The notes below the pieces were generated by a model. That model saw only the letters and a list, made by a program, of their open reading frames with translations, did no database searches and had not been told where the DNA came from. The position numbers were made by a program, and so were the translations under genes. From the sequence record PZ445448.1: DNA of 64,000 nt; one strand, given 5' to 3'. This DNA comes from a phage. Positions 47,075 to 58,435 of this stretch are shown piece after piece. How positions within the stretch are numbered: the first letter of the stretch is position 1; each line of letters opens with the position of its first letter.

Positions 47075-47374
47075 TATGCTATAGGACAGGTAACAATTGA
47101 AGAGGAGGTACAAAAATGAAAGGTAATGTGATCCCCTGGAAAATGTAGCTATTAATGACGCTGAGGCTATCGCCCTGGTTGAAAAGGCCATGGCGGGAGC
47201 GTTGGAACATAAAGAAGAGTACGAAAAAATGATGGTTAACCTGGTAGGGCGGCGGCAGGTGGATTCTATCATAAAAAATAATTTAAAATAATTGTTGACA
47301 ACCGGGGGAGTCCTGCTATTCTTACCCTACAAGGTGAACAACACCGCACTAACTAGTAAAGAGGATAAAAAATC

Positions 47375-47572
47375 ATGAACGCATACGGAATCAAAGTACG
47401 TCGCAACACTCGCCAGGTGGTCACCGATCAAGTGGTTTGCCTGGTGGATGTAACCATCAACAACGGGCAAGGCCTTTATAAATTTCGTCGCGGTCATAGC
47501 TATACCCTGCAACAGCTTAATCGTTGCGCCCTGACAAAAGGTCAGATCAATCACTGGTTTAATAAAAAATAA
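47375..47572 (+). CDS. small-gene block protein (65 aa), unknown function
   Basis: ATG after AAAGAGGATAAAAAATC; promoter-like TTGACA at 47295. Confidence 0.55.
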   Translation: MNAYGIKVRRNTRQVVTDQVVCLVDVTINNGQGLYKFRRGHSYTLQQLNRCALTKGQINHWFNKK

Positions 47573-47575
47573 GTA

Positions 47576-47604
47576 TTGACATACGCCCCGACACAAAATA
47601 TACT
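47576..47604 (+). promoter_or_regulatory. sigma70-type promoter (TTGACA-17-TATACT)
   Basis: Hexamers at 47576-47581 and 47599-47604. Confidence 0.55.
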
Positions 47605-47636
47605 GAAATCACAAAAGACACTAAGAGGATAAAATC

Positions 47637-48035
47637 ATGAAAACCACAACCTTTAATTTTGACAATGCCGACTTCTCTTTTTCTGATGTCAAGAACTGCC
47701 GCCGTGATCGTGGATTTTACAAGGCTTATAATCTGGTTGGCCTGGACGATGATAATAATTTGCACGAAGTAGCGGAGATCCGGTACTATGCCGCCGCCAG
47801 CGGTAACACTAACTACTGCGTTTTTTGGATACACGACAACAAGAACAATAAGTACGGTTATACTGGCGGCAAGGCGAGCGGTCACGGTTATGATAAAGCT
47901 AACGCAGCACTTGAGAGCGCATTAAATGCTATGGGGATCACTGCCAACGGCTGGATCTATGAAGAAGAGTTTTTGTCAGCACTTGCTGCCCACCTGGGGT
48001 ATAAAAAGCACATTGTGACATGCGCCCACGAATAA
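47637..48035 (+). CDS. small-gene block protein (132 aa), unknown function
   Basis: ATG after CTAAGAGGATAAAATC. Confidence 0.6.
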   Translation: MKTTTFNFDNADFSFSDVKNCRRDRGFYKAYNLVGLDDDNNLHEVAEIRYYAAASGNTNYCVFWIHDNKNNKYGYTGGKASGHGYDKANAALESALNAMGITANGWIYEEEFLSALAAHLGYKKHIVTCAHE

Positions 48036-48127
48036 AAAAAAAAAAAATTATTGACACGCTGCAAAATTCAAGTAAACTATACACAAAAGGCGGGAATGTT
48101 TCCCGCCAACACAAAGGAAAAAAGATC

Positions 48128-48523
48128 ATGAATAAGAACGTACGCCGCATCATGAACGAACTGGCAAACGATGAAAAAATTATTGATATGCATTTGGTCA
48201 ACATTTGCCGCCGTTGTGTAACATATAACAACCGCGCCGCAAAAGCGCGTGAGATGAACGCAAAAGGCACCTTAAAGCCCTTTCAGGTGGTTGTAAAATC
48301 TATAACCAGTGCAGCAGGCCAGGCGCATGACCACAACAACGGGAGCACTAATATTGATCCGTCTTACGTAATGAAACGGATCCGGACTTGCAAGAATAAA
48401 GAGCAGGTGTATAACGTCATAGATTGGCTGGACTCCCTGGGCGATGTGGTTTATAATAGGTTTTCTGCAGCTATCGAGATCCAGCTTGACAGACTGGACG
48501 GGAAAGTACTGAAAACTTACTAA
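48128..48523 (+). CDS. small-gene block protein (131 aa), unknown function
   Basis: ATG after AAAGGAAAAAAGATC; leader hairpin GGCGGGAA-tgt-TTCCCGCC; TTGACA at 48043. Confidence 0.6.
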   Translation: MNKNVRRIMNELANDEKIIDMHLVNICRRCVTYNNRAAKAREMNAKGTLKPFQVVVKSITSAAGQAHDHNNGSTNIDPSYVMKRIRTCKNKEQVYNVIDWLDSLGDVVYNRFSAAIEIQLDRLDGKVLKTY

Positions 48524-48525
48524 GT

Positions 48526-48571
48526 TTATTTTTAGATGGCCTTGACGCCAGGGCCATCAATAAAGTAAACT
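48526..48571 (+). promoter_or_regulatory. dyad-embedded promoter-like element, copy 1
   Basis: TTATTTTTA-GATGGCC-TTGACG-CCAG-GGCCATC-AATAAAG-TAAACT; TTGACG sits in the dyad spacer, 18 nt to TAAACT. Confidence 0.45.
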
Positions 48572-48602
48572 AATCCCAGTTAAGCTAAAAGGAGGCTTGA
48601 AG

Positions 48603-48722
48603 ATGAGCACTACACGCCAGCACACAAAGGTAACTATTATCGTTTGCATCATTGGTTATATCCTGGCGCAAATGTTGATGGGTAGCGCCAACGGTGTCGC
48701 AAAATTTTTCTTAAACTTTTAA
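48603..48722 (+). CDS. small hydrophobic peptide (39 aa)
   Basis: ATG after AAAAGGAGGCTTGAAG; predicted single TM helix; below the 60 aa ORF-track cutoff. Confidence 0.5.
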   Translation: MSTTRQHTKVTIIVCIIGYILAQMLMGSANGVAKFFLNF

Positions 48723-48750
48723 TTGACAAGCTAACTTAGATCGGTATACT
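48723..48750 (+). promoter_or_regulatory. sigma70-type promoter (TTGACA-16-TATACT)
   Basis: Hexamers at 48723-48728 and 48745-48750. Confidence 0.55.
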
Positions 48751-48800
48751 AAACACATCAACGGGAAAACTTCCCAGAACACACAAAAGGAGAAAACACC

Positions 48801-49142
48801 ATGACCACTATGACCGCCGCAGAAAAAGCTATTCAGATCGCTGCCCTGAAAAAACAGATCGCAGACCTTGAGAATAAGATCGATAACTTTGAAATCGACG
48901 AGGACAAGTACGACGAAAACTATGATGAATGGTTAGACGAGATCTACGGCGAAATTATGATCGGAAACATTTCTTTTCTTCCGTCGCGTATCCTCAAGGA
49001 GCTAGATCCTATCGCTTACCGCTGCGGATTTAGCGACTACATCGACAGCCTGGATATTGAGGACGATGAAGAATACCAGGAATTACAGACAGAGTTGGAA
49101 GAAGCAAAAGAAGAGCTTGCGGAGCTGGAAGAAAACGAGTAA
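48801..49142 (+). CDS. highly acidic coiled-coil protein (113 aa), unknown function
   Basis: ATG after AAAAGGAGAAAACACC; Asp/Glu-rich throughout (DEDKYDENYDEWLDEIYGE ... ELEEAKEELAELEENE). Confidence 0.6.
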   Translation: MTTMTAAEKAIQIAALKKQIADLENKIDNFEIDEDKYDENYDEWLDEIYGEIMIGNISFLPSRILKELDPIAYRCGFSDYIDSLDIEDDEEYQELQTELEEAKEELAELEENE

Positions 49143-49144
49143 GA

Positions 49145-49190
49145 TTATTTTTAGATGGCCTTGACTCCAGGGCCATCAATAAAGTAAACT
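49145..49190 (+). promoter_or_regulatory. dyad-embedded promoter-like element, copy 2
   Basis: TTATTTTTA-GATGGCC-TTGACT-CCAG-GGCCATC-AATAAAG-TAAACT. Confidence 0.45.
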
Positions 49191-49231
49191 TTATACTGTT
49201 AACACTGAACTAATGCATAGGAGTTAAAACC

Positions 49232-49477
49232 ATGGCAGCACTAATCACTAAATATTACGCCCCTACCAACACCAAAAGCGCCCGTATCATGGTAAAAGGC
49301 TTCGGACGTAAAAAGGTTTACACCTGGGATTATGCCTTAGACACGGAAGACAACTACACCAACGCGATGACAGATTTTATTAATGAGCTGAACACGCGGA
49401 TCTTGACAAATTATAAAATTACCGATATTGCCTATATAGGGGAAGGCGGGATCTGTTTTGTCGGTATCGTCAAATAA
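49232..49477 (+). CDS. small-gene block protein (81 aa), unknown function
   Basis: ATG after TAGGAGTTAAAACC. Confidence 0.6.
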   Translation: MAALITKYYAPTNTKSARIMVKGFGRKKVYTWDYALDTEDNYTNAMTDFINELNTRILTNYKITDIAYIGEGGICFVGIVK

Positions 49478-49553
49478 ACTGTTTTTTCGGTGGTCCTGGT
49501 AGCAGGGCCATCTATAAAGATAGTTTATCAATACAATGAAAGGAGAAAGTAAC

Positions 49554-49907
49554 ATGATCAGTGGGGCAAGTTTTATCATTGGCGCTATTGCTACGGCTTT
49601 AATTGTAAATAAGATCCAGGATAAAAAGGAAAGAGGAAGTACCGCCCTTGCAGAATATCCATTTTGGGCATTCAACGATAACGAAGATTATATTATAAAG
49701 TATAAAAATAAAGAAGGTGACCAAGTAACACCACGACCGATCCCGGCTTACAAAATGCAGGAAACACTATACCGCCTGGAGGCGGGTGGCGCAAAAATTG
49801 TAGACTTTTGGGGATACGACCACACAGATCAGGAAGTTATAAAGCGCCGTATCCGGGCTATTCAGGCCAATATTGAAGTTAGCAAGGGGGGAATATATGA
49901 AAATTAA
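49554..49907 (+). CDS. small-gene block protein (117 aa) with N-terminal hydrophobic segment
   Basis: ATG after AAAGGAGAAAGTAAC; a partial copy of the dyad element lies upstream. Confidence 0.55.
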   Translation: MISGASFIIGAIATALIVNKIQDKKERGSTALAEYPFWAFNDNEDYIIKYKNKEGDQVTPRPIPAYKMQETLYRLEAGGAKIVDFWGYDHTDQEVIKRRIRAIQANIEVSKGGIYEN

Positions 49908-50094
49908 TTTCGAGAAAATTGTAAAGCGCCCTCATGATTCCGAAGAGCTGCCAGAACGCCGCCAGCGTAACAATAAACTGAATAAGCCAAAAAGGTTTGG
50001 GAAGATCTGGCGGAATCATTATGATCGTAAATTGCCGGGCCTACTTTTGGAACGTGAACGACAAGCGGAACGATACCGCCACAAAGACAAATAG
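49897..50094 (+). CDS. small basic protein (65 aa)
   Basis: ATG after AAGGGGGGAATAT; overlaps previous gene by 11 nt; Lys/Arg-rich. Confidence 0.5.
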   Translation: MKINFEKIVKRPHDSEELPERRQRNNKLNKPKRFGKIWRNHYDRKLPGLLLERERQAERYRHKDK

Positions 50095-50101
50095 CAACCA
50101 A

Positions 50102-50128
50102 CGCCCCGCCATTGTGCGGGGCTTTTTA
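50102..50128 (+). terminator. rho-independent terminator
   Basis: GCCCCGCC-attgt-GCGGGGC followed by TTTTTATTT. Confidence 0.55.
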
Positions 50129-50251
50129 TTTCTATCCTACGAATAGCGCCCCTGGTTGGCCCTGTAAGCGCCAAAAAGGCCCCCACCTATGCAATCGCCC
50201 CTTTAACCTGAAAACATCGCCCAGGGCCGTTTTATGGCGTTAAAAATATCA

Positions 50252-50279
50252 TTGACATCGTCAACAGGTTAGCTATACT
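50252..50279 (+). promoter_or_regulatory. sigma70-type promoter (TTGACA-16-TATACT)
   Basis: Hexamers at 50252-50257 and 50274-50279. Confidence 0.55.
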
Positions 50280-50311
50280 AACCACATCAAAGAGAGAAAG
50301 GAGTAAACGCC

Positions 50312-50572
50312 ATGCGTAAATTAAAAAATTTTGATAAAGTTGATGTTATCCTGAATAATTTTTACTACTGCAACAACAAGGCTATTTGGTGGCGTGATAG
50401 TTCCACCGATAAAGTCAAAGCGCGCTTTCTTCAGGGGCACTGGCAAGGCCGCCCAGTGATTAAAATCATGGGGCAATTGGTAGCGTTTAAAAATTGCCGC
50501 CGTGTTGATGACGTTGAGGAGATTTTAAACATTTTGCGCCACAATAATTTAAAAAATAGTGTTGACAAGTAA
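50312..50572 (+). CDS. small-gene block protein (86 aa), unknown function
   Basis: ATG after AAAGGAGTAAACGCC. Confidence 0.6.
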   Translation: MRKLKNFDKVDVILNNFYYCNNKAIWWRDSSTDKVKARFLQGHWQGRPVIKIMGQLVAFKNCRRVDDVEEILNILRHNNLKNSVDK

Positions 50573-50589
50573 ATCTCAATAAGTATAAT
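50562..50589 (+). promoter_or_regulatory. sigma70-type promoter (TTGACA-16-TATAAT)
   Basis: Consensus hexamers at 50562-50567 and 50584-50589. Confidence 0.6.
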
Positions 50590-50599
50590 TAAACACACA

Positions 50600-50618
50600 G
50601 GCGGGAAAACTTCCCGCC
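50600..50618 (+). promoter_or_regulatory. leader stem-loop at predicted 5' end of transcript
   Basis: GGCGGGAA-aac-TTCCCGCC starting about 10 nt after the -10; similar hairpins precede at least ten other genes in the block. Confidence 0.45.
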
Positions 50619-50646
50619 ACTAACAAAGAAAACAGGAGAAAATATC

Positions 50647-51270
50647 ATGACCACCGTTAACATTACCACAGGTTACAATTTAGCTTTCGACGTGCTGACC
50701 GACGAACAAAAAGAAAAAGCCGTTGAAATGGTCCGCGAAAGAGAAGAACACAGCGGGGATAACTTTTTTGCAGAAAGTGTAATTGAAGACTATAAAGAAT
50801 ATATCTTTCCAGAGTATGGCCTTGAAGATACCGAAGTACATTGGTCCGGCTTTTGGTGCCAGGGCGACGGCGCATCAATCAGTGCGGAAAACGTGGATTT
50901 AGAAAAATTCTTGCGTAAAGTCAAGTCTCTGACTAAATTCCGCTCAATTCGTCACTTGTTCGGCACAATGCACGATGGCGAGCTATCCGCAAGTGTTGAG
51001 CGCGATCCATATAGCCGTTATAGTCACGAAAACACTGTAAGCGGGTACATCGATACTACATGGCTAGACCTGACCGCCAAACAAGAAAACAAAGTGGAAG
51101 ACCTGGAAGAACTGATCACCGAGACGGTACGGGAGCTATCCCGCAAGGTTTACGTAGACCTGGAGGAGGCCTATCTAGAACAGTTCACCGCAGAAAACCT
51201 GATCGGCCTTATCGAGGCCAATGATTGGCGGTTTGATGTCGATGAATATGGTGAGATGACTTTTTCATAA
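50647..51270 (+). CDS. acidic protein (207 aa), unknown function
   Basis: ATG after AACAGGAGAAAATATC; Asp/Glu-rich. Confidence 0.6.
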   Translation: MTTVNITTGYNLAFDVLTDEQKEKAVEMVREREEHSGDNFFAESVIEDYKEYIFPEYGLEDTEVHWSGFWCQGDGASISAENVDLEKFLRKVKSLTKFRSIRHLFGTMHDGELSASVERDPYSRYSHENTVSGYIDTTWLDLTAKQENKVEDLEELITETVRELSRKVYVDLEEAYLEQFTAENLIGLIEANDWRFDVDEYGEMTFS

Positions 51271-51360
51271 ATAAAGTGTTGCAATAACCTAAAAACCTGC
51301 TATATTAAAACTCAAGGGGGCAAGACGTTTGCCCCCACACAAAACAAAGAGGAAAACATC

Positions 51361-51741
51361 ATGAAAAACACTACTAAAGCTATTGACACTGTTATGTTTA
51401 ACCTGGTTACATTCCGTGAAGATATGAAAGATCTTCCACGTGAAACAGTGTGCGATCACATTGAAAACTATCGCAAACTAATCAAAGAGTTGCCTTTAAA
51501 ACGTGACCAGTATGCGGCTAACGCTATGCTTAACGCCATGATCAAAAAGATGATTCAGTGTGATTTAACTCTGGCCTATGATTATGCAGGTGGTCGTTTT
51601 GCAGTATACAATCAGCCCGTGCCTGGTATGAGCACCACCGAAGAATTGCACGCGTTAAATCTGAAACAAGATGTATGGGATAACATGCCCCGCGTGGTGG
51701 TGTGGGCAGAAAGCGGAAAGATTTACGGCGATAATTTTTAA
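51361..51741 (+). CDS. small-gene block protein (126 aa), unknown function
   Basis: ATG after AAAGAGGAAAACATC; leader hairpin GGGGGCAA-gacg-TTTGCCCCC. Confidence 0.6.
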   Translation: MKNTTKAIDTVMFNLVTFREDMKDLPRETVCDHIENYRKLIKELPLKRDQYAANAMLNAMIKKMIQCDLTLAYDYAGGRFAVYNQPVPGMSTTEELHALNLKQDVWDNMPRVVVWAESGKIYGDNF

Positions 51742-51750
51742 TCAGGTAAC

Positions 51751-51777
51751 AGGCGGCATATTTGCCGCCTTATTGTT
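51751..51777 (+). terminator. terminator candidate
   Basis: AGGCGGCA-tatt-TGCCGCCT followed by TATTGTT. Confidence 0.4.
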
Positions 51778-51805
51778 AAACAGAACTGCAAAAGAGGTAC
51801 ATAGA

Positions 51806-52177
51806 ATGGAATTTATTATTTTGGCTGTAGTAGTTGCCTTGTTCAACGCCTGGATCGCTGGCAAGATAGGTAGATCCGCTTTTCTATGGTTTGTTATATC
51901 TATTTTCCTGGGAGTGGTTGCAACTATTGTATTGGTTATCCTTGCAATTGTTGACAAGGGCGATAATAGAAAGGGTAAAGTGTTTTCCGACCTGTATGAC
52001 GCACAAACGTTTGTCAACGCCTATTATAGTGATCTTCCAGTCTCCCTACGCTGCAGCCTGGCACAACAGGTTTTTGATGAGGCTAAAACCAGAGACCAAG
52101 CCCATGAGATATGTTTAACTGAAGCGGATCGCCTATTTGAGAGGAATAGAAAATATGTGGACCAGCCGTTTAAATAA
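51806..52177 (+). CDS. membrane protein (123 aa), two predicted TM helices
   Basis: ATG after AAAGAGGTACATAGA; hydrophobic segments FIILAVVVALFNAWIAG and FLWFVISIFLGVVATIVLVILAIV. Confidence 0.55.
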   Translation: MEFIILAVVVALFNAWIAGKIGRSAFLWFVISIFLGVVATIVLVILAIVDKGDNRKGKVFSDLYDAQTFVNAYYSDLPVSLRCSLAQQVFDEAKTRDQAHEICLTEADRLFERNRKYVDQPFK

Positions 52178-52376
52178 CGCCACGTTAATTAATCCCTTTA
52201 GTGAAGATTTGAAGCCAGCCGCCTGGCGTGACGGATTCAATAACGAACGCTTTATTTTCAGGCCTGATCTTGAGGAATTTTATAACAATGGATCGAACAA
52301 CAGCGGAGATAATTTTTCTTGTGGTGTGCGTGGTGATAGGACTCCTGGGGGCCATTGTAAACCACGTCACTACTAA
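52155..52376 (+). CDS. hypothetical protein (73 aa), uncertain
   Basis: ATG 10 nt after GAGAGG; overlaps an alternative-frame membrane ORF (52288-52413). Confidence 0.3.
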   Translation: MWTSRLNNATLINPFSEDLKPAAWRDGFNNERFIFRPDLEEFYNNGSNNSGDNFSCGVRGDRTPGGHCKPRHY

Positions 52377-52413
52377 CAGGAGGGAAGGGGGAGACGATGA
52401 CAACCAAGGATAA
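52288..52413 (+). CDS. small hydrophobic peptide (41 aa), uncertain
   Basis: Single TM-like helix IIFLVVCVVIGLLGAIV; alternative frame to 52155-52376. Confidence 0.3.
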   Translation: MDRTTAEIIFLVVCVVIGLLGAIVNHVTTNRREGGDDDNQG

Positions 52414-52516
52414 GCCATGCGCTGATAAGGTGCGCCGTGTTATGGTATGGCTTGAGATTATCGCCCTTGAAATATTGTTAGGCGTAGGGATGTACTTTAT
52501 CGCTGTAAGTAACTAA
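52397..52516 (+). CDS. small hydrophobic peptide (39 aa)
   Basis: ATG after GGAGGGAAGGGGGAGACG; C-terminal hydrophobic helix; followed by a terminator. Confidence 0.45.
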   Translation: MTTKDKPCADKVRRVMVWLEIIALEILLGVGMYFIAVSN

Positions 52517-52518
52517 GA

Positions 52519-52548
52519 GCGGCCCCCGATCATGGGGGCCTATCTTTT
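52519..52548 (+). terminator. rho-independent terminator
   Basis: GGCCCCC-gatcat-GGGGGCC followed by TATCTTTT. Confidence 0.55.
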
Positions 52549-52654
52549 AAAAAATTTTTCTTCCGGGGTGTTGCAATCCGGTCCGGAATGTGGATAATAA
52601 CAATCAACGGGGAGCTAATCCCCACCACCACAAAAACCAGAAAGGAGAAACAAA

Positions 52655-52855: not shown

Positions 52856-52857
52856 AA

Positions 52858-52905: not shown

Positions 52906-52948
52906 AAACCCTGTTAAAATACCACGCAGTTAACAAGGAGTGATAGAC

Positions 52949-53248
52949 ATGTTTATCCAGGCTAATAATCTTTATTTCTTTGATGGTCAGATCGTAGATG
53001 GTGTGGAAGTGGAGATCACCGGGTGCCCTGGCGGTCAGGCTATGACTTTTCGGAATAATGCCTTTGATGATTCTCATATCGTTATGAGAATGGAAGTTAC
53101 GAAGCTGGACGACAAGAAAACACTTATTGACTATTCTGTGAAAGATCATCCAGACTACCGCATGATCCATGGTGATTTGTGCATTGTTGACCGTGACAAG
53201 GTGGGCGGCATTGTGATCGCTATTGTGAACGATGTTTTCTCAAACTAA
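52949..53248 (+). CDS. small-gene block protein (99 aa), unknown function
   Basis: ATG after AAGGAGTGATAGAC. Confidence 0.55.
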   Translation: MFIQANNLYFFDGQIVDGVEVEITGCPGGQAMTFRNNAFDDSHIVMRMEVTKLDDKKTLIDYSVKDHPDYRMIHGDLCIVDRDKVGGIVIAIVNDVFSN

Positions 53249-53265: not shown

Positions 53266-53616
53266 ATGAAAGTCAAACTATATTACCTTAATGAGCTTAA
53301 CCCCCTTGCCCAGGTCCGCGCCCTAGCTAATACCTTGATTTGTGAGAAATCTGTATATTGTGTTGAGCTTAACGCCATGCGTGAACGTCTCAAAGGTGGT
53401 TACTTTGACATCCATGCTGCAATCAACGGCCTGAATATGGAATTTATACGCTTACGTAACAGCCGCCGGAATCTGGCAAGAATGGAACAAGATCCGGCCC
53501 ACCTTCGTAAGCTGGTTATTGAAAATCATCTGATGTTTAATGCCGAGGGTGATTATTACCATTTTCACCGCAAACGCTGGTACCGTGGCGGCAATACAGG
53601 CAAGAATGCAAAATAA
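53266..53616 (+). CDS. small-gene block protein (116 aa), unknown function
   Basis: ORF closely following previous gene; weak RBS. Confidence 0.5.
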   Translation: MKVKLYYLNELNPLAQVRALANTLICEKSVYCVELNAMRERLKGGYFDIHAAINGLNMEFIRLRNSRRNLARMEQDPAHLRKLVIENHLMFNAEGDYYHFHRKRWYRGGNTGKNAK

Positions 53617-53651
53617 GGCCCCTAGCAGGGCCTGCAGCAATATAATCACAT

Positions 53652-53686
53652 AAAGGCCATGCGGTTGCATGGCCTTTATTATTTTG
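53652..53686 (+). terminator. rho-independent terminator candidate
   Basis: AAAGGCCATGC-ggtt-GCATGGCCTTT followed by ATTATTTT. Confidence 0.45.
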
Positions 53687-53818
53687 GCGTTACAACGGCA
53701 TACGGGGCGCTTAAAAAATTTTTAAAGAAGTACTTGCATCATTCCCGACAATATGGATAATAAGAGTTGTCGAGGGGGAGGCCCCCAATCGTTGACCAGA
53801 TAGATAGGAGTTAAAATC

Positions 53819-54103
53819 ATGGCTATTGTTACCGCTGGCGATGTAGTAGAAATGGAAGCAAAATACTTAAAAGCGGGTATGCACATCCTACGGAATGATC
53901 AAGAGTTATTATTAACGATGGTTGACTATAATCACGGCCAGGATTATCCAAGCATCGACTACTTTTTTGAGTATGTTGATGAAGAGTTGAAAGAGGATGA
54001 GGCCTATTGCGGTGAGTTCTGCAACTTCTTTTGTCCTGATGAGGTTGTAAAGGTTATTTATCAACCTGGCGTAGCTTTCCCGCTGCACGCTATCAATAAA
54101 TAA
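53819..54103 (+). CDS. small-gene block protein (94 aa), unknown function
   Basis: ATG after ATAGGAGTTAAAATC; leader hairpin GGGGG-agg-CCCCC; TTGCAT-17-ATAATA promoter-like at 53728. Confidence 0.6.
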   Translation: MAIVTAGDVVEMEAKYLKAGMHILRNDQELLLTMVDYNHGQDYPSIDYFFEYVDEELKEDEAYCGEFCNFFCPDEVVKVIYQPGVAFPLHAINK

Positions 54104-54158
54104 ACCTGGCGGGGCCGAAAAGGCCCCCAATTATGAAAATAAAGAGAGGCAAATCATC

Positions 54159-54392
54159 ATGATGGAACAAATTAAACGCGCCGAGGCTATTAATGGCAAC
54201 GTGATCTATTTTGTCAGCAAAAACGAAAAAGGCGTACCATATGCGGCAGTAATAGTACAACCTGACGGCGATTATTGGTTTACTGTGTACGGCGCTTATT
54301 CTTTTGGGCGTCCAGTGCATGATAAAATTTTGAAAGTAGCGAACCCTACCGGGAAGAATATCACAGCAGAAAAATTTTTTGAAAATAGTTGA
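54159..54392 (+). CDS. small-gene block protein (77 aa), unknown function
   Basis: ATG after AAAGAGAGGCAAATCATC. Confidence 0.55.
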   Translation: MMEQIKRAEAINGNVIYFVSKNEKGVPYAAVIVQPDGDYWFTVYGAYSFGRPVHDKILKVANPTGKNITAEKFFENS

Positions 54393-54416
54393 CATGACCA
54401 TATAAGACTGTAATAT
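54389..54416 (+). promoter_or_regulatory. sigma70-type promoter (TTGACA-16-TAATAT)
   Basis: Hexamers at 54389-54394 and 54411-54416. Confidence 0.5.
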
Positions 54417-54467
54417 ATAAATCAAAGGGGGCAACTAACCCCACCAACTACAAAGAGGATAAAAATC

Positions 54468-54647
54468 ATGGCTATTATTGCAAAGACTGAGATCGTAGGC
54501 TTAGATTCTATTCTCCTCGCATATGAGGAAGCTATAGAAATGTATGTGGTTTCCTATGGTGAGTATATCCGTGAATATAAATCTATTGATCTGGCTTTTG
54601 AATGTTATATCCGCCAGGTTAATAAAGCGTACGATGATTATCGTTAA
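54468..54647 (+). CDS. small protein (59 aa), unknown function
   Basis: ATG after AAAGAGGATAAAAATC; below the ORF-track length cutoff; own promoter. Confidence 0.5.
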   Translation: MAIIAKTEIVGLDSILLAYEEAIEMYVVSYGEYIREYKSIDLAFECYIRQVNKAYDDYR

Positions 54648-54653
54648 AATAGT

Positions 54654-54682
54654 TTGACAACAGCCATCTTACAAAGCATAAT
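54654..54682 (+). promoter_or_regulatory. sigma70-type promoter (TTGACA-17-CATAAT)
   Basis: Hexamers at 54654-54659 and 54677-54682. Confidence 0.5.
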
Positions 54683-54734
54683 ACATAAGGCGGTGGAATG
54701 GTCCGCCACCTGGAACAAAGAAGAGGTAAACACC

Positions 54735-54980
54735 ATGAAAAGCAATAAAGGTTATAACGGTTACAAAAACAAAACTCATTGGAATGTAAGCCTTTGGATT
54801 AATAACGATGAGTCATTGTACCGGTTGGCCCAAGGCTTTATTAACGCCAATGCTAATCGTAATGATGCGGCGCGGGATATGATGCTTTTTCTGGAGCTAA
54901 CCGGACAAGATAAGACCCCGGACGGCTTCAAGTACAGCACTACGGCGATCCGTGCCGCGATGGTTGGAATGAAACACTAA
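54735..54980 (+). CDS. small-gene block protein (81 aa), unknown function
   Basis: ATG after AAGAAGAGGTAAACACC; leader hairpin GGCGG...CCGCC. Confidence 0.55.
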   Translation: MKSNKGYNGYKNKTHWNVSLWINNDESLYRLAQGFINANANRNDAARDMMLFLELTGQDKTPDGFKYSTTAIRAAMVGMKH

Positions 54981-55057
54981 AAGCACATAGCTGCCTTACC
55001 CTGGGGCTGTGGTAGCGGCCCCATGAATAAGGTTACTAACAGAAGAGAATAAACACC

Positions 55058-55162
55058 ATGAAACAGAAATTAATCGATGCAGTGATCTTGGTTATTGCCC
55101 TGGGTATTGGCCTGATTGCAACCATGTCTAATATGATCTTGTCTTCCAACGGTATCGGGTGA
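55058..55162 (+). CDS. small hydrophobic peptide (34 aa)
   Basis: ATG after AGAAGAGAATAAACACC; sequence MKQKLIDAVILVIALGIGLIATMSNMILSSNGIG. Confidence 0.45.
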   Translation: MKQKLIDAVILVIALGIGLIATMSNMILSSNGIG

Positions 55163-55171: not shown

Positions 55172-55387
55172 ATGATCACTAACAAAACAGGCAAAACGGA
55201 ATTTTTACGCAACTTACAGATCGGCAAGCCTGAGATCTGGTACTGCACTAAAACACCACGTGACGAAATGAAAGACTTCACCGCCACGCTGCAACGGGTA
55301 AAGATATCTATCACGCAGAAAAAGGCCTTACTAGTGGTGGAAGGGGAGATCCCCCAAACCGTTGTTATAGTTGAGCGTACAGCATAG
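55172..55387 (+). CDS. small-gene block protein (71 aa), unknown function
   Basis: ATG after GGTGAGGTTGGCAA. Confidence 0.5.
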   Translation: MITNKTGKTEFLRNLQIGKPEIWYCTKTPRDEMKDFTATLQRVKISITQKKALLVVEGEIPQTVVIVERTA

Positions 55388-55478
55388 TTTAATTTATACA
55401 GATACCTGAAAATTAACCAACAAAGCATAAACAGGCGGTTACCGCCGCCTTAAACGTAGCAGAAAGAGGATAGACACA

Positions 55479-55763
55479 ATGAAAAAGATGATCGCAGTGG
55501 TTACCCTGGTTGTTGGACTTAATGCGCCTGTAATGGCTAAAGAGCTGGCAAAAGAGGTTAATCTAACGGATATTCATGCCGTCAATCAAATCGGGGTTAC
55601 TTATCGCTTATGCCTTGCCGCTAAAACTTTTAAGGACGGCACAACAGAGTACTACGGATTCGAGGGTATCCGGTGCGGTGAGCTTGCTCGCGACCTTAAG
55701 GAAGATCCAGACCTGGAGGATCTGCCCATAACCGTGAACGGAAAAACTTACGTGAACCGTTAA
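55479..55763 (+). CDS. secreted/periplasmic small protein (94 aa)
   Basis: ATG after AAAGAGGATAGACACA; N-terminal signal-peptide-like MKKMIAVVTLVVGLNAPVMA. Confidence 0.55.
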   Translation: MKKMIAVVTLVVGLNAPVMAKELAKEVNLTDIHAVNQIGVTYRLCLAAKTFKDGTTEYYGFEGIRCGELARDLKEDPDLEDLPITVNGKTYVNR

Positions 55764-55765: not shown

Positions 55766-55900
55766 ATGAGAAAGATAATTATTACCATGGGGATCGTGGC
55801 GGCAATGTTGGCGATCTTTCCCTTTATGGTTAGGTATGTGCTGATTAATGTTGTCCTGGTAGTCAGCGATCTGGTGTTATATATTAACTCATTGTTTTAG
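55766..55900 (+). CDS. small hydrophobic peptide (44 aa)
   Basis: ATG 2 nt after previous stop; sequence MRKIIITMGIVAAMLAIFPFMVRYVLINVVLVVSDLVLYINSLF. Confidence 0.4.
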   Translation: MRKIIITMGIVAAMLAIFPFMVRYVLINVVLVVSDLVLYINSLF

Positions 55901-55908
55901 GCGCGATA

Positions 55909-56100
55909 ATGACAGCGGAAGAAGTTAAAAAAGTACTGGCGGTACTGCGTTATCATAATCATTGCAAGGTGAAGAATGATCCTGATTATCTTGATTCATC
56001 CCTTGAAGAGGATACACTACAAGCCATAAGCAACATGCAAGAATTGCTTAAGCGTATGACAGAGAAAAACCGACCGGACTACATAGGGGGTAAAATATGA
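55909..56100 (+). CDS. small-gene block protein (63 aa), unknown function
   Basis: ORF coupled to upstream genes; no strong RBS. Confidence 0.45.
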   Translation: MTAEEVKKVLAVLRYHNHCKVKNDPDYLDSSLEEDTLQAISNMQELLKRMTEKNRPDYIGGKI

Positions 56101-56408
56101 TCGCTATTACGCCAACCGTTTTAGATTGGTATCGGCAACGCATAGCGCCTCCGCTGGCTATCTTCAAAGATGCGGAAGCAAAACAACGCCGGATCTCAAT
56201 ACATGAGATCATCAACCTTAACGCTGGAGGCACACCATACCGCCCAGGACCTGGCCGTGAGATGGACAATACATTGGCGATCCTGAAGATACGCCGTAAA
56301 CGGTCCTCCCTTACGCTGGATTCATTACACACAATGCAGTCCCCGTTCCAGGTGACTGGGAAACGGATCGCCAGGTCCTGGACAAAGGCCAATGACCGGA
56401 CCGTATAA
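56097..56408 (+). CDS. small-gene block protein (103 aa), unknown function
   Basis: ATGA-coupled; RBS TAGGGGGTAAAAT. Confidence 0.5.
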   Translation: MIAITPTVLDWYRQRIAPPLAIFKDAEAKQRRISIHEIINLNAGGTPYRPGPGREMDNTLAILKIRRKRSSLTLDSLHTMQSPFQVTGKRIARSWTKANDRTV

Positions 56409-56543
56409 ATAAAAAGTGTTTTGGTACTGATTTTGGGGTTGACTTGTTCGGCCCCTTTTGCTATTCTTATTAAACGGGCGGCACTTGGGAACAGGGGGAG
56501 ACAATCACCAGGCCTGCCTGTCATATAAGAACTATAAAAACCG

Positions 56544-56572
56544 TTGACATCTGCCAGGGGGTGGGGTAACAT
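56544..56572 (+). promoter_or_regulatory. sigma70-type promoter (TTGACA-17-TAACAT)
   Basis: Hexamers at 56544-56549 and 56567-56572. Confidence 0.5.
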
Positions 56573-56626
56573 TTATCTTGAAGGGGCAAAGGTGCCCACA
56601 CAACAACCAGAAGAGAGGAAAACACT

Positions 56627-56899
56627 ATGTCAAGCTGGATTAATCAAGAAGTCGAATCACGTTTTAATGCTATTTGGGATCTCATCGAAAAAGAAGACGG
56701 CACATCAAGCCCCTACCTCAACAATTTGGAATTCCATTTTGTGGAAGCGATGAACGCAGAACATGATCACGAAGGTGGTGCGGACGAGTTCGCTAAAGGG
56801 TATGGCTTCAACAATGCCAACGAAATGATCGAGGCGGTTGTACTCCAGGCTGAGGAAGATTATCAATTAAAAACGCTTGAATTCTGCCGCCGTAAGTAA
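56627..56899 (+). CDS. small-gene block protein (90 aa), unknown function
   Basis: ATG after AAGAGAGGAAAACACT; leader hairpin GGGCA-aagg-TGCCC. Confidence 0.6.
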   Translation: MSSWINQEVESRFNAIWDLIEKEDGTSSPYLNNLEFHFVEAMNAEHDHEGGADEFAKGYGFNNANEMIEAVVLQAEEDYQLKTLEFCRRK

Positions 56900-56959
56900 T
56901 AAGATAATGACACGGGCCGGGAGGCCCACTAATCAGAACCACACAAAGAGGTAAACATC

Positions 56960-57223
56960 ATGAAACGTCTTGATCAGCTTAAACTAGTTCAGTACATGGC
57001 CTACAAAGTTCTTGAAGTCCAAAAAGGTAGCAAAAAAGAGGTTTGCGAGAAAGCATATAAGATCTTTACCCGTAAAAAAGATGATTGGATGTTACGCCAG
57101 ACCAAAAAAGCCGATATCCTGGGATACCTGGAAGAAGAGATCCGACTTGAAGAACAAGAAGAGATCCGCCGTAGTGAGGCAGATTATCAGGCAGCTTGGG
57201 AAAACTGGATGAGCAACAAATAA
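56960..57223 (+). CDS. small-gene block protein (87 aa), unknown function
   Basis: ATG after AAAGAGGTAAACATC; leader hairpin GGGCC-ggga-GGCCC. Confidence 0.6.
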   Translation: MKRLDQLKLVQYMAYKVLEVQKGSKKEVCEKAYKIFTRKKDDWMLRQTKKADILGYLEEEIRLEEQEEIRRSEADYQAAWENWMSNK

Positions 57224-57289
57224 TACAACAAGTTACATGGTCAGGGGCAATAAAGCCCCTTGATCACATAAAAATTATGCTATCCCTGG

Positions 57290-57318
57290 TTGACAGGGAT
57301 CGGCAGTTTTGCTATATT
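57290..57318 (+). promoter_or_regulatory. sigma70-type promoter (TTGACA-17-TATATT)
   Basis: Hexamers at 57290-57295 and 57313-57318. Confidence 0.55.
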
Positions 57319-57367
57319 CTTTTTTGAAGGGAAGTTGTAAGAAAATTAACTAAGAGGTAAAAACACC

Positions 57368-57787
57368 ATGAACATTAAATCTAATAATCCGGCATATAGC
57401 TTTGATAACGCTTTTTGTCACGGTCCGGCGGCGAAAGGATTCGAAATCGATGGTAAACTAATTATTGTCAATGTTGACGGGGAAGAGGTTGCAGTATATC
57501 CGGTGGCAGACGTAAAAAGCCGTTTACAATGCCGCATGGATGTTACCGCCTATCAGCTTGATCCGGTCCGCATAGTTGCCCTGGTCCTGGAAGAAGAAAT
57601 TAAAGCCATGCACCATAGCAACAGATTTATTGGTGACGCGCAGGATAATATGAAAGTATGCCGCCATAAAGTTAATGAAGTGCTTAAAGAGTACGGCTAT
57701 AAAGATCTTATGATCAAACGTGAGGAAAAATTCCGCTACCGTAACGACCTGGCAAATCGGATTTTTGAAATATACGAATCATTATAA
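57368..57787 (+). CDS. small-gene block protein (139 aa), unknown function
   Basis: ATG after CTAAGAGGTAAAAACACC; last gene of the block. Confidence 0.6.
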   Translation: MNIKSNNPAYSFDNAFCHGPAAKGFEIDGKLIIVNVDGEEVAVYPVADVKSRLQCRMDVTAYQLDPVRIVALVLEEEIKAMHHSNRFIGDAQDNMKVCRHKVNEVLKEYGYKDLMIKREEKFRYRNDLANRIFEIYESL

Positions 57788-57805
57788 TTTTTTAACTGAA
57801 TTATC

Positions 57806-57830
57806 AAGGGGCTTAGGCCCCTTTCTTTTT
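57806..57830 (+). terminator. rho-independent terminator closing the plus-strand small-gene block
   Basis: AAGGGGC-ttag-GCCCCTT followed by TCTTTTT. Confidence 0.55.
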
Positions 57831-58435
57831 GTCTGCTCTTCCTCCTACCACAAACGGCCCAGCCTGGCAAGTGGAATAATTGACTAGCCATCAATCCCAC
57901 ACACTGTACAAATATACATGGAAAATAACTATTGCATAATTTTTCATTGTGTGGTAGCAGGTCCATTTTTACCCGTTTTCTCTCTCAAAATTGCACGTAA
58001 TGCCGCTATTGCACAAAATTTAACCTGATGCACATCTTCAATATCTTGTCAACAACTAAAAATCTTTATAAGTCATACACTTACACACTCACAAAAGCGT
58101 GTTCTACGTGAAAAATCGAGTATAACTATAGCCGCCAGATCTCAGAATTTACGTACGCTCACCATTCTATAGTCTGCTAAGTATTTATTCCAACCATGGA
58201 ATAACGGAATAGTCAATACCTGCATAAAATAATTATTCGTGTAAACTGCATAACATAAATCAGCTCAGGTGTCAACATTTTTCGTAAACAGTCCGAAATT
58301 GTCACGGTGAGTTATCATAAACAGAGAAATATTTAGTCGTCTAATGTTTACTGTACATTACTATACTGACTGGAATCATTAGATGACTAAGAGAAAGATA
58401 AGAAATAATTAACAATACAATTATTTTATCTGTAA

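Follow-up and report, generated by a model that had tools for sequence, protein, structure and literature searches.

A variable accessory-gene region of an rV5-like Vequintavirus, probably assembled from PeSL-type expression cassettes

What kind of module is formed by the run of small genes at positions 47280–57835 of the 64,000-nt phage DNA stretch analysed here (the window; sequence record PZ445448.1), and what role do its repeated leaders play? The window comes from an E. coli phage of the rV5-like type (Vequintavirus); the block is 98% identical to Vequintavirus genomes such as vB_EcoM_12A_SA_NWU and MaxTheCat, and its counterparts in rV5 are genes ~164–196. We consider it likely that the block is a variable accessory-gene region of this phage, made of PeSL-type (promoter-early stem-loop) cassettes and operating by a mechanism that we infer from the sequence. 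The features of the block are listed in the table. Promoters and terminators of rV5 in this region were predicted already in 2013; the earlier note on this DNA had missed these predictions, as well as the PeSL identity and the role of the leaders as recombination linkers.

The 30 small genes all lie on the + strand and encode products of 34–207 aa. The earlier note had the gene number right at about 30, but set the smallest product at 27 aa. All 30 products matched PHROG families of unknown function, and for 28 the match spans the entire family. The description of the genes as unrecognisable was nearly right, since Pfam recognises only g08 (Phage_1_1, like T7 gp1.1) and g21 (DUF7249). Neither sequence searches (Pfam, PHROG) nor fold searches assigned a function to a block product, and a PDB fold search with the AlphaFold2 model of g10 (pLDDT 88) gave no convincing match. 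The acidic proteins, secreted protein and tiny hydrophobic peptides noticed earlier are all present among the 30 genes. We regard the products as accessory proteins, for which host takeover, superinfection exclusion or counter-defence would be the likeliest classes.

Table. Features of the block. Promoters are given as -35 hexamer (position), spacer, -10 hexamer (end); hairpins and terminators by their coordinates.
Feature	Coordinates	Strand	Description
Variable block	47280..57835	+	30 genes, 22 leader cassettes, 7 canonical terminators
g01 leader	47280..47374	+	AT-rich upstream tract; TTGACA (47295), 16 nt, TATTCT (47322); weak stem-loop in spacer 47304-47327; AAAGAGGATAAAAAATCATG
g01	47375..47572	+	65 aa, basic; phrog_7119
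g02 leader	47573..47636	+	TTGACA (47576), 17 nt, TATACT; no hairpin found in this leader
g02	47637..48035	+	132 aa; phrog_7028
g03 leader	48036..48127	+	A14 run; TTGACA (48051), 16 nt, TAAACT (48078); post-(-10) hairpin GGCGGGAAtgtTTCCCGCC 48089-48107; CA-rich tract; AAAGGAAAAAAGATCATG
g03	48128..48523	+	131 aa; phrog_13245
g04 leader	48521..48602	+	51-nt repeat D1; T-rich tract; hairpin 48535-48558, TTGACG in loop; TTGACG, 18 nt, TAAACT (48571)
g04	48603..48722	+	39 aa, hydrophobic peptide; phrog_16391
g05 leader	48723..48800	+	TTGACA (48723), 16 nt, TATACT (48750); post-(-10) hairpin GGGAAaacTTCCC 48763-48775
g05	48801..49142	+	113 aa, acidic (pI 4.1); phrog_9294
g06 leader	49140..49231	+	Repeat D1; hairpin 49154-49177; TTGACT (49161), 18 nt, TAAACT (49190)
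g06	49232..49477	+	81 aa; phrog_3199
g07 leader	49475..49553	+	Repeat D1 variant; hairpin GGTGGTCCTGgtagCAGGGCCATC 49489-49512, two G.U pairs, -16.4 kcal/mol (+ strand RNA) vs -7.6 (- strand RNA)
g07	49554..49907	+	117 aa, N-terminal hydrophobic segment; phrog_12734
g08	49897..50094	+	65 aa, very basic; Phage_1_1, E 2.6e-11; overlaps g07 by 11 nt, coupled
g09 leader	50095..50311	+	Canonical terminator 50103-50122, then TTTTTATTT; decayed leader remnant 50161-50194; TTGACA (50252), 16 nt, TATACT (50279); weak hairpin over -10 50267-50283
g09	50312..50572	+	86 aa; phrog_11241; replaced in some relatives
g10 leader	50562..50646	+	TTGACA, 16 nt, TATAAT (50589), 12/12 matches; post-(-10) hairpin GGCGGGAAaacTTCCCGCC 50600-50618; CA-rich tract; AACAGGAGAAAATATCATG
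g10	50647..51270	+	207 aa, acidic; phrog_5162
g11 leader	51271..51360	+	TTGCAA (51279), 16 nt, TATATT (51306); post-(-10) hairpin GGGGGCAAgacgtTTGCCCCC 51316-51336
g11	51361..51741	+	126 aa; phrog_7352
g12 leader	51742..51805	+	Canonical terminator 51751-51770, then TATTGTT (rV5 t184); AAAGAGG SD
g12	51806..52177	+	123 aa, two N-terminal hydrophobic helices; phrog_13090; labelled 'putative holin' in BASEL records
g13	52155..52376	+	73 aa; overlaps g12, coupled; phrog_12060
g14	52397..52516	+	39 aa, hydrophobic; coupled, 20-nt gap; phrog_13629
g15 leader	52517..52654	+	Terminator 52521-52540 (rV5 t181); upstream tract AAAAAATTTTT; TTGCAA (52571), 16 nt, GATAAT (52598); hairpin GGGGAGCTAATCCCC 52609-52623
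g15	52655..52855	+	66 aa; phrog_12347
g16 leader	52854..52948	+	Repeat D1; hairpin 52868-52891; TTGACT (52875), 18 nt, TAAATT (52904)
g16	52949..53248	+	99 aa, acidic; phrog_7366
g17	53266..53616	+	116 aa, basic; coupled, 17-nt gap; phrog_8549
g18 leader	53617..53818	+	Hairpin 53616-53633; terminator 53650-53679 (rV5 t177); AAAAAATTTTT tract; TTGCAT (53734), 16 nt, GATAAT (53761); hairpin GGGGGaGGCCCCC 53774-53786
g18	53819..54103	+	94 aa, acidic; phrog_12610
g19 leader	54104..54158	+	Hairpin GGGGCCgaaaaGGCCCC 54111-54127; no recognisable promoter
g19	54159..54392	+	77 aa; phrog_9227
g20 leader	54389..54467	+	TTGACA (54389), 16 nt, TAATAT (54416); weak hairpin 54427-54442
g20	54468..54647	+	59 aa, acidic; phrog_9374
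g21 leader	54648..54734	+	TTGACA (54654), 17 nt, CATAAT (54682); hairpin GGCGGTGGAATGGTCCGCCACC 54689-54710
g21	54735..54980	+	81 aa; DUF7249
g22 leader	54981..55057	+	Hairpin 55002-55023 (-16.2 kcal/mol, G.U pairs); no recognisable promoter
g22	55058..55162	+	34 aa, hydrophobic peptide; phrog_14631
g23	55172..55387	+	71 aa; coupled, 9-nt gap; phrog_5988
g24 leader	55388..55478	+	Hairpin 55433-55450; no recognisable promoter
g24	55479..55763	+	94 aa; Sec-type signal peptide by inspection (MKKMIAVVTLVVGLNAPVMA/KE); phrog_9845
g25	55766..55900	+	44 aa, hydrophobic; coupled; phrog_16005; missing from Murica
g26	55909..56100	+	63 aa; coupled; phrog_9599
g27	56097..56408	+	103 aa, basic; coupled; phrog_13681
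g28 leader	56409..56626	+	Terminator/promoter composite 56435-56455 (TTGACT (56439), 17 nt, TATTCT); inverted-repeat arm 56494-56524; TTGACA (56544), 17 nt, TAACAT (56572); hairpin GGGCAaaggTGCCC 56584-56597
g28	56627..56899	+	90 aa, acidic; phrog_7287
g29 leader	56900..56959	+	Hairpin GGGCCgggaGGCCC 56914-56927
g29	56960..57223	+	87 aa; phrog_11701
g30 leader	57224..57367	+	Terminator-like hairpin 57278-57305 around -35 TTGACA (57290); spacer and -10 TATATT (57318) within its U-rich tail
g30	57368..57787	+	139 aa; phrog_12277
Canonical terminator at block end (rV5 t164)	57806..57823	+	Then TCTTTTTG

Sigma70 sites with at least 10 of 12 consensus matches occurred 12 times on the + strand of the block and not at all on the - strand, compared to 1.9 ± 1.2 strong sites in dinucleotide shuffles. 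Ten of the 12 have a perfect TTGACA and precede a gene. Additional promoters are three of the TTGCAA/TTGCAT type and another three or four, of the form TTGAC(G/T)-18-TAAAYT, that lie within repeats. In total, about 16–17 of the 22 genes with a leader of their own are preceded by a promoter, while the remaining eight genes are translationally coupled to the preceding gene; the proposal that most genes possess their own near-consensus promoter was slightly generous. Across eight relatives, none of 384 ortholog positions in the -35 hexamers differed, compared to 8.1% in the spacers. The 25 nt upstream of the -35 box have an AT content of 76%, versus 57% for the whole block. Seven canonical terminators split the block into units.

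The initiation regions of the block leaders follow the consensus aAAAGGaGaAAAcAtCATG and, with the ATG left out, hold 18.3 bits of information, while 6.9–7.0 bits were obtained for genes elsewhere in the window. A C at -1 occurs in 17 of 22 leaders but in only 2 of 38 genes elsewhere, bearing out the nearly invariant initiation region described before. The A+C share of the leader is 74%, and a repeat search independently recovered the leader parts as repeat families D1, D2, D4 and D5. A module of small unknown genes with host-type promoters and with initiation regions that are stereotyped, strong and unstructured is supported, its signals being block-specific and conserved.

A hairpin of -4 kcal/mol or below was found in 18 of 22 leaders; beyond these, a hairpin follows the -10 of g15, and g20 has a weak one of 4 bp. 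The earlier note had placed at least 11 stem-loops right after the -10. Nine leaders (g03, g05, g10, g11, g15, g18, g20, g21, g28) have this arrangement, the hairpin starting about 6–13 nt (mostly 9–12) past the -10, but in the others it lies over the -35 box (g04, g06, g07, g16, g30), over the -10 (g09) or within the spacer (g01), or occupies the equal position relative to the ATG without a recognisable promoter (g19, g22, g24, g29). Of 78 distinct orthologous leader variants, 76 retained the hairpin (median z -4.5); where the promoter could be recognised, it mostly starts 9–12 nt beyond the -10. Predicted 5' UTRs fold into the hairpin, with the rest of the leader left wholly unpaired (z -3.8 to -5.4). 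The g30 stem displays compensatory and wobble changes (C-G to U.G to U-A) among relatives, with CCCTGG/CAGGG, CCTTGG/CAAGG and the intermediate CCTTGG/CAGGG; that of g18 changes from GGGGG/CCCCC to GGAGG/CCTCC, and in some hairpins the loops are inverted. The hairpins are maintained as structures though stems and loops vary. RNA of the + strand folds better in 86 leaders and that of the - strand in 49 (Wilcoxon p = 2e-4, with orthologous leaders being non-independent). Formal covariation statistics are weak because in a naive pair-by-pair count of orthologs numerous pairs score as 'broken', for the most part owing to shifted alignments and to spurious outer pairs.

What might these hairpins do? 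The 10 nt after them contain 0–3 T, compared to 5–8 after the seven canonical terminators; the cassette hairpins lack a U-tract and are therefore not ordinary terminators. Protection of mRNA 5' ends, as suggested before, fits the nine leaders in which the predicted start lies about 2–5 nt from the hairpin, although a single-stranded 5' overhang of this length may be too long for full protection. It does not fit about ten others, whose hairpins cannot be 5'-terminal from a recognisable promoter, as they lie over the -35 or the -10 or are promoterless. The ompA 5' stem-loop slows 5'-end-dependent decay. In E. coli, 5' stem-loops are established stabilisers of mRNA, according to work listed in a review (PMC3997798).

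The cassettes of the block are not a new kind of element but match PeSL, known from the variable regions of T4-like phages (Arbiol 2010, Comeau 2014; PMC2839356, PMC4122927). PeSL cassettes combine a sigma70 promoter, preceded by AT-rich DNA, with an SD/ATG and with a polyG/polyC stem-loop whose position varies (PMC2839356, PMC4122927); in experiments, their promoters were very strong and the stem-loop lowered downstream expression (PMC2839356). The block shares these parts and the turnover of single genes at cassette junctions. However, PeSL was defined in T4-like phages with the stem-loop reported as a terminator, whereas the U-less hairpins of the block are unlikely to terminate efficiently. 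The same architecture was found in Phapecoctavirus, Certrevirus and a jumbo Asteriusvirus, and the tuntematon leader occurs at 3–7 places per genome across Stephanstirmvirinae.

Relatives differ by gains and losses of single genes as whole cassettes, with junctions at the -35 box or the SD/ATG. The genes that relatives lack or have replaced are g09, g17 (missing from phita32 and V18), g21 (in five of seven compared relatives), g25 and g27 (missing from four of seven). In relatives, the g21 leader either is joined directly to g22, as in JohannBauhin, or precedes different genes; divergence starts at TTGACAAC in typing phage 14 and phita32. Typing phage 14 carries a 319-nt ORF-plus-leader unit inserted exactly at the SD of the g29 leader and 89% identical to Phapecoctavirus tuntematon. 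At the nucleotide level, the g21 ORF alone is 80–90% identical to its counterparts in jumbo Asteriusvirus phages, T7-like PGT2 and Klebsiella phage ZCKP1, g26 is 89% identical to that of jumbo phage 121Q, and g27 has a homologue in a Certrevirus. Of 30 breakpoints, 27 were intergenic or no more than 15 nt from the end of a gene; any mechanism would give such a distribution, since recombinants must be viable to survive. Service as a recombination linker for gene gain, loss and exchange is the best-supported extra role of the leader.

Each cassette runs from an AT-rich upstream tract through a near-consensus sigma70 promoter and a short G-run/C-run stem-loop to an A/C-rich leader unable to fold; next come a strong SD, a spacer rich in A, (T/C)CATG and a single small ORF, behind which one to three further ORFs are in some cases translationally coupled. 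We infer start sites, timing and hairpin function of the cassettes as follows. Upon DNA entry, unmodified host RNA polymerase would fire the promoters and yield many short, heavily translated early mRNAs. The hairpins in + strand RNA would serve as insulators: past the -10, about 2–5 nt from the 5' end, they could slow RppH/RNase E decay in the manner of the ompA stem-loop, and in read-through RNA from an upstream gene the post-(-10), -35 and -10 hairpins could attenuate transcription or stop 3' exonucleases. Because leader segments of 30–50 nt recur ahead of every gene, recombination enzymes of the phage itself could delete, insert or swap single ORFs with the expression signals staying intact. 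The phages appear to exchange genes through the cassettes, and the cassette style shared with other large coliphages would allow genes to move between phage families.

The 10.6-kb block of small genes on the + strand of the window (47280–57835) is 98% identical to several genomes of Vequintavirus, the rV5-like myophages of E. coli. Its counterpart in rV5 comprises genes about 164–196, which lie at the far end of the long leftward transcription unit and adjoin a 'non-coding' box of roughly 3 kb reported for that phage (PMC3606486). Matches to the block were obtained in 306 phage records, only 62 of which cover at least 80% of it, indicating that its gene content varies among isolates. We defined 30 + strand genes (g01 to g30, in order) encoding proteins of 34–207 aa. 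All 30 matched PHROG families of unknown function, a different one for each gene and in 28 cases across the entire family length, and we therefore regard the ORFs as real, conserved phage genes. Pfam matches were restricted to g08, which encodes a small, arginine-rich protein (Phage_1_1, like T7 gp1.1), and g21 (DUF7249), and sequence searches against Pfam, PHROGs, NCBIfam and PDB assigned no function beyond these two. For the acidic protein encoded by g10, a confident AlphaFold2 model was obtained that had no convincing match among solved structures, and the label 'YeeU-like antitoxin' carried by one GenBank record was unsupported by our searches. A search of IMG/VR with g10 returned two close loci only, and GenBank phage records were used instead. 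Among GenBank entries, 23 records that give Campylobacter jejuni as the host (MG0656xx; 'Campylobacter phage' A142, A13b, C7, D# and others) are 94–100% identical to the block; probably either their host label is wrong or the preparations were contaminated. A leader of at least 55 nt is present upstream of 22 of the 30 genes, while the remaining eight are translationally coupled to the preceding gene.

Screening the block for sites matching at least 10 of the 12 sigma70 consensus positions yielded 12 sites on the + strand and none on the − strand, compared to 1.9 ± 1.2 expected from dinucleotide shuffles. Ten of these strong sites immediately precede a gene and contain a perfect TTGACA. Upstream of the −35 box, the adjacent 25 nt are AT-rich (76% AT versus 57% for the whole block). 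Among eight related phages none of 384 positions in the −35 hexamers differed, whereas divergence was 8.1% in the spacers and 7.2% in the upstream tract. Sigma70 promoters and terminators of rV5 have been predicted by Kropinski et al. 2013 (PMC3606486, Table S4). For the orthologous rV5 genes, this study lists nine promoters of the block (P164, P168, P174, P185, P186, P192, P194, P195 and P195A) and four of its terminators (t164, t177, t181 and t184), but it is silent on a hairpin after the −10, a 51-nt hairpin/−35 repeat, a stereotyped initiation region and cassette shuffling. No perfect copy of the rV5 late-promoter motif TGGTAAAATA occurs within the block, and a literature search found no transcriptome data for this phage group. 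A homopolymer of 14 A precedes the promoter of g03 and could vary in length by slippage.

Most leaders contain a GC hairpin. In nine of them (g03, g05, g10, g11, g15, g18, g20, g21 and g28) the hairpin starts about 6–13 nt after the −10 box, mostly at 9–12 nt, which places it approximately 2–5 nt from the predicted transcription start. About ten other hairpins are positioned differently. The −35 box is enclosed by a hairpin in five leaders, four of which are copies of a 51-nt repeat (D1, TTATTTTTAGATGGCCTTGACnnCAGGGCCATCAATAAAGTAAACT) and the fifth the g30 promoter; the hairpin lies over the −10 at g09 and in the spacer at g01, and at g19, g22, g24 and g29 it occupies the equivalent place relative to the ATG with no recognisable promoter. 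The predicted 5' UTRs consist of a single hairpin followed by a wholly unpaired leader. Hairpins after the −10, in the D1 repeat and at promoter-less leaders are followed by only 0–3 T in the next 10 nt and thus lack the U-tract of an intrinsic terminator, their tails being mostly A/C-rich. Seven canonical terminators split the block into about seven units. The positions of these and further features are compiled in the table.

Features in and around the small-gene block (window coordinates)
Feature	Position	Strand	Remarks
Tandem repeat, three copies of 65–74 nt	46536–46721		noncoding, 5' of block
Folded RNA	46921 to 46840	−	−36 kcal/mol, z −5.0
Inverted repeat, first arm	46864–46894		31 nt; arms 90% complementary
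CCTGG(C/T)(G/A)GGGCC motifs	46940–47250		scattered
Sigma70-like promoter TTGACA-17-CACAAT	46956	−	first arm just 3'
Run of 14 A	48035–48048		immediately 5' of g03 promoter; rV5 tract there shorter (A/T)
Canonical terminators (hairpin plus U-tract)	50103, 51751, 52521, 53650, 56435, 57278, 57806		5–8 T in next 10 nt
Leader-like segment	50161–50194		inside 217-nt gap before g09; 76% identical to part of g19 leader
g10	50647–51270	+	207-aa acidic protein; invariant G58, G68, F69, Q72, G73, D74, G75, H127, R162
g19 leader, matching part	54105–54138		
g21	54735–54980	+	
g26	55909–56100	+	
Sigma70-like promoter TTGACT-17-TATTCT	56439	+	second arm just 3'
Inverted repeat, second arm	56494–56524		31 nt
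Long AT-rich noncoding region	57835 to about 60500		36% GC at 58–59 kb; equivalent to rV5 'non-coding' box
Short repeats such as ATGCAAACGAATGnCATGGC	58449, 58725		in noncoding region 3' of block

Both noncoding flanks of the block carry repeats. The two arms of the inverted repeat could correspond to paired small RNAs or regulatory elements located on either side of most of the block. The tandem repeats and scattered motifs on the 5' side are a possible replication origin or protein-binding array.

Conservation of the hairpins was determined on segments from eight relatives. A pair-by-pair count of orthologous stem positions proved unreliable because of indels, inverted loops and spurious outer pairs, so each segment was refolded instead. 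By this approach the hairpin was retained in 76 of 78 distinct orthologous leader variants (median z −4.5), and where a promoter was recognisable the offset from the −10 was again mostly 9–12 nt. Stem changes preserved pairing: in g30 CCCTGG/CAGGG is replaced by CCTTGG/CAAGG, with a U.G intermediate in V18, and in g18 GGGGG/CCCCC by GGAGG/CCTCC. The loops vary freely and are at times inverted (AAC to GTT, TGT to ACA). When the best hairpin was chosen for each strand separately in 187 leaders, the + strand RNA was the more stable in 86 and the − strand RNA in 49 (Wilcoxon p = 2e-4, on leaders that are not independent of one another), which favours a role of the hairpins at the RNA level. Searches of Rfam with the leaders gave no family match, the sole match being at chance level (E = 0.3), and BLAST with the g10 leader returned orthologous copies only.

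The 22 genes with leaders share the initiation consensus aAAAGGaGaAAAcAtCATG. Outside the ATG this region holds 18.3 bits of information, compared to 6.9–7.0 bits for the other genes of the window. A C at position −1 occurs in 17 of 22 leaders versus 2 of 38 genes elsewhere in the window, and the 20 nt upstream of the SD are 74% A+C. In two further repeat families recovered from the leaders, D2 and D4, the SD and the start codon form the 3' end of the leader motif. Between 21000 and 46000 on the + strand, several replication-region genes with a promoter-like site use an SD of the style TAAGGAGACC, and no hairpin follows their promoters; the phage thus seems to use at least two styles of translation initiation. 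The combination of promoter, hairpin and stereotyped initiation region, which the earlier note had read from the sequence, was borne out by these results and is specific to the block, as promoters elsewhere in the window have neither the hairpin nor this initiation region.

All differences in gene content compared to seven relatives are losses, gains or replacements of single genes (g09, g17, g21, g25 and g27), and 27 of 30 breakpoints fall between genes or at most 15 nt from a gene end. In JohannBauhin, the promoter-hairpin leader of g21 is joined directly to the ORF of g22 by a junction between SD and ATG. Typing phage 14 and phita32 diverge exactly at TTGACAAC in the g21 leader and have different genes downstream of it. 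Typing phage 14 also carries an extra gene of 72 aa inserted at the SD of g29; the insert of 319 nt spans the interval between two successive SD/ATG sites, and Phapecoctavirus tuntematon, a phage of a different subfamily, has an ORF-plus-leader unit with 89% identity to it. In tuntematon itself, about 35 small genes lie behind leaders that are even more uniform than those of the block (TTGACA, a 17-nt spacer, TAAGAT and ACRTAG, followed by GGGCGGCAATGGTGCCGCC or GGCGGGAAnnnTTCCCGCC), and one such leader recurs at 3–7 places per genome across Phapecoctavirus and Justusliebigvirus. Hairpins are likewise associated with promoters in the Pectobacterium Certrevirus DU_PP_I (in the spacer, over the −10 or after the −10) and in the jumbo phage Sharanji (after the −10). 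Recombination between repeated leader segments would be the means by which genes are exchanged. As separate observations, the segment in the gap before g09 looks, from its similarity to the g19 leader, like the remnant of a lost cassette, and the ORFs of g21 and g26, without their leaders, share 85–89% nucleotide identity with jumbo Asteriusvirus (Sharanji, 121Q). The g21 gene is also common to the T7-like phage PGT2 and Klebsiella phage ZCKP1. The sequence similarity of g21 and g26 suggests that individual genes have recently moved from one phage family to another.

Promoter-early stem-loop (PeSL) cassettes have been described in the variable (hyperplastic) regions of the T4-like phages RB49 and phi1 (Arbiol et al. 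2010, PMC2839356) and were later found in PST and nt-1 (Comeau et al. 2014, PMC4122927). In a PeSL unit, the stop codon of the upstream gene lies in an AT-rich tract, and the unit further contains a consensus sigma70 promoter, a polyG/polyC stem-loop, and the SD and ATG of a small gene without known function; five subclasses have been published according to the position of the stem-loop relative to the promoter (PMC2839356). Experimentally, PeSLs had very strong promoter activity while the stem-loop lowered downstream expression, reducing that of lacZ as much as rrnB T1 (PMC2839356), and recombination between cassettes deletes, inserts or circularises single genes (PMC2839356; PMC4122927). All sequence-level defining features of PeSLs were found in the block: a repeated intergenic motif with a consensus sigma70 promoter (12 + strand sites with an invariant −35), an AT-rich upstream tract (76% AT, with repeat D1 beginning at a stop codon), a stem-loop in several positions (nine after the −10, five over the −35, one over the −10 and one in the spacer), a closing SD and start codon (the 18.3-bit region; D2 and D4), a concentration in a variable region whose genes are non-essential and without known function (PHROG matches and variation in gene content), and indels or replacements bounded by cassettes (junctions at TTGACAAC or SD/ATG). 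As in the T4-like phages, the units recur in front of small, functionally uncharacterised genes where the genome varies most, and indels between close relatives have their junctions between the −10 and the SD/ATG. However, the lineages differ (Vequintavirinae, together with Stephanstirmvirinae, versus T4-like phages), and the commonest hairpin position in the block is after the −10 and hence within the transcript, whereas phi1 PeSLs mostly have it in the spacer or over the −10. In further contrast to PeSLs, most hairpins of the block have no U-tract, separate canonical terminators are present, and the initiation region is stereotyped. Mini-circles, promoter strength and terminator activity of PeSLs are experimental results; the block was compared by sequence. 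Taken together, we consider it likely that the block as a whole is an array of PeSL-type cassettes, which as far as the searched literature shows have not been noted before in rV5-like or phAPEC8-like phages. The block does not reveal a new mechanism. The interpretation in the earlier note, a co-ordinately and strongly expressed module with a plausible role in host takeover or counter-defence, was partly supported: the leader design stands, while host takeover, exclusion or counter-defence are candidate roles of the proteins and a reasonable guess only.

According to our proposal, unmodified host RNA polymerase would transcribe the block immediately and the hairpins would work in the RNA as insulators. 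A hairpin after the −10 would protect the 5' end of the mRNA, like the 5' stem-loops of ompA and papA, and hairpins in read-through RNA would attenuate transcription or block 3' exonucleases. The stabilising stem-loops of ompA and papA (Emory, Bouvet and Belasco 1992, as given in the references of review PMC3997798) resemble the leaders in having a stable hairpin a few nt from the 5' end (predicted for the block), with an unstructured segment and then a strong ribosome-binding site behind it. However, the 5' ends in the block are predicted, the overhang of 2–5 nt may exceed the limit for full protection, and a 5'-proximal placement occurs in just nine of about 19 hairpins. We put forward 5'-end protection as a real function of the hairpins after the −10 tentatively, with somewhat less than even confidence.

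It is possible, though we think it unlikely, that the hairpins only attenuate or terminate transcription arriving from the upstream cassette, as in the original view of PeSLs, and that the placement after the −10 is incidental and confers no 5' protection. The hairpins of the block may overlap the −35 or the −10, lie in the spacer or follow the −10, and their position is likewise varied in Certrevirus and the five published PeSL subclasses; what they have in common is a location between an upstream stop codon and a downstream SD, and the effect of the PeSL stem-loop on lacZ, equal to that of rrnB T1, fits this explanation. It accounts less well for the nine hairpins after the −10, which have A/C-rich tails with 0–3 T in 10 nt while canonical terminators with a U-tract are used at seven other sites of the block. 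An efficient terminator at about +25 would, moreover, abort the cassette's own transcript, and the offset between −10 and hairpin (mostly 9–12 nt) is tightly held across relatives and Phapecoctavirus.

Control of T4 early mRNAs by RegA and RegB provides a precedent for another explanation, in which the hairpin and/or the 18-bit region is the recognition site of a phage factor that shuts off this class of genes after the early phase, for example a RegA-like translational repressor, a RegB-like endoribonuclease or a DNA-binding repressor acting on the palindromes. The information content of the initiation region far exceeds what is required for ribosome binding, other phage genes do not have it and favour TAAGGAGACC, and the 51-nt D1 repeat is an inverted repeat around a −35-like box. 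Nevertheless, we consider such a class-specific factor improbable, as recombination among cassettes explains the homogeneity of the sequence equally well and hairpin stems and loops differ freely between leaders, with loops even inverted, leaving no common sequence for a specific binder. A duplex-DNA operator for a dimeric repressor is disfavoured by this free variation of the stems, by the occurrence of G.U pairs and by the fact that the + strand RNA folds more stably.

That the leaders are nothing but ordinary strong signals, alike through recent local duplication or shared ancestry and with functionless GC palindromes, appears very improbable. Several leaders are plainly paralogous (D1, D2, D4 and D5) and sigma70-like promoters occur throughout the rV5 genome, but the ORFs behind similar leaders are unrelated (30 different PHROGs), 76 of 78 variants retain the hairpin although their sequences have changed, neither hairpin nor initiation region accompanies the promoters in other parts of the window, and the design recurs before different genes in different subfamilies and in a jumbo phage. 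Finally, the downstream hairpins as nut/boxB-like or put-like RNA that loads an antitermination factor for read-through of the internal terminators are scarcely credible: the block does contain seven terminators and has hairpins just 3' of its presumed early promoters, the g19 loop is GAAAA as in lambda boxB, and g08 is small and arginine-rich, but stems and loop sizes vary, neither a conserved loop or stem nor a boxA-like sequence occurs among leaders or orthologues, Rfam gave no match, the GAAAA hairpin has no recognisable promoter upstream, and g08 is homologous to T7 gp1.1 and not to N.

Small genes grouped behind strong promoters of the host type are also characteristic of the pre-early region of T5 and the class I early genes of T7, and g08 is homologous to the T7 early protein gp1.1. 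However, the early genes of T7 depend on three common promoters and on RNase III sites, whereas the promoters of the block are not shared but provided gene by gene. T5 DNA is transferred in two steps, while rV5 is reported to be circularly permuted (PMC3606486). According to this literature on rV5, which does not concern the window itself, the block has no fixed leading end that could enter first, and a T5-like pre-early first-step-transfer region flanked by repeats was ruled out.

The cassettes are gained and lost as units, like the morons of lambdoid phages and the cassettes of integrons, which are single genes with their own or received expression signals. Morons, however, have no conserved flanking linker, which the cassettes of the block have. 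Integrons use an integrase and attC sites, whereas no recombinase is implicated in the block and the 'linker' is the expression signal itself. A speculative extension, to which we assign a low probability, is that the leader acts as a 'linker dialect' uniting Vequintavirinae, Stephanstirmvirinae and the jumbo Asteriusvirus into one exchange pool of early accessory genes. If true, this would amount to an integron-like system without a recombinase, in which ORFs flanked by common SD/ATG and −35 segments hop between families and are expressed at once. As a second layer of this idea, genes with the 18-bit initiation region, which is specific to the block, might form a regulon that is shut down collectively at the post-transcriptional level.

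If the identification of the block as PeSL-type cassettes is confirmed, PeSL-type shuffling would extend beyond the T4-like phages to the rV5-like and phAPEC8-like groups, which are widely used as therapeutic and biocontrol coliphages, and would explain why isolates differ gene by gene in their accessory content. The approximately 30 strongly expressed genes of unknown function per genome would then form a natural set for screening for host takeover, exclusion and anti-defence functions. The leaders, which combine a promoter, a 5' hairpin, an unstructured leader and a strong ribosome-binding site, represent compact 'insulated' expression units of natural origin that could be of practical use in synthetic biology and the engineering of phages.
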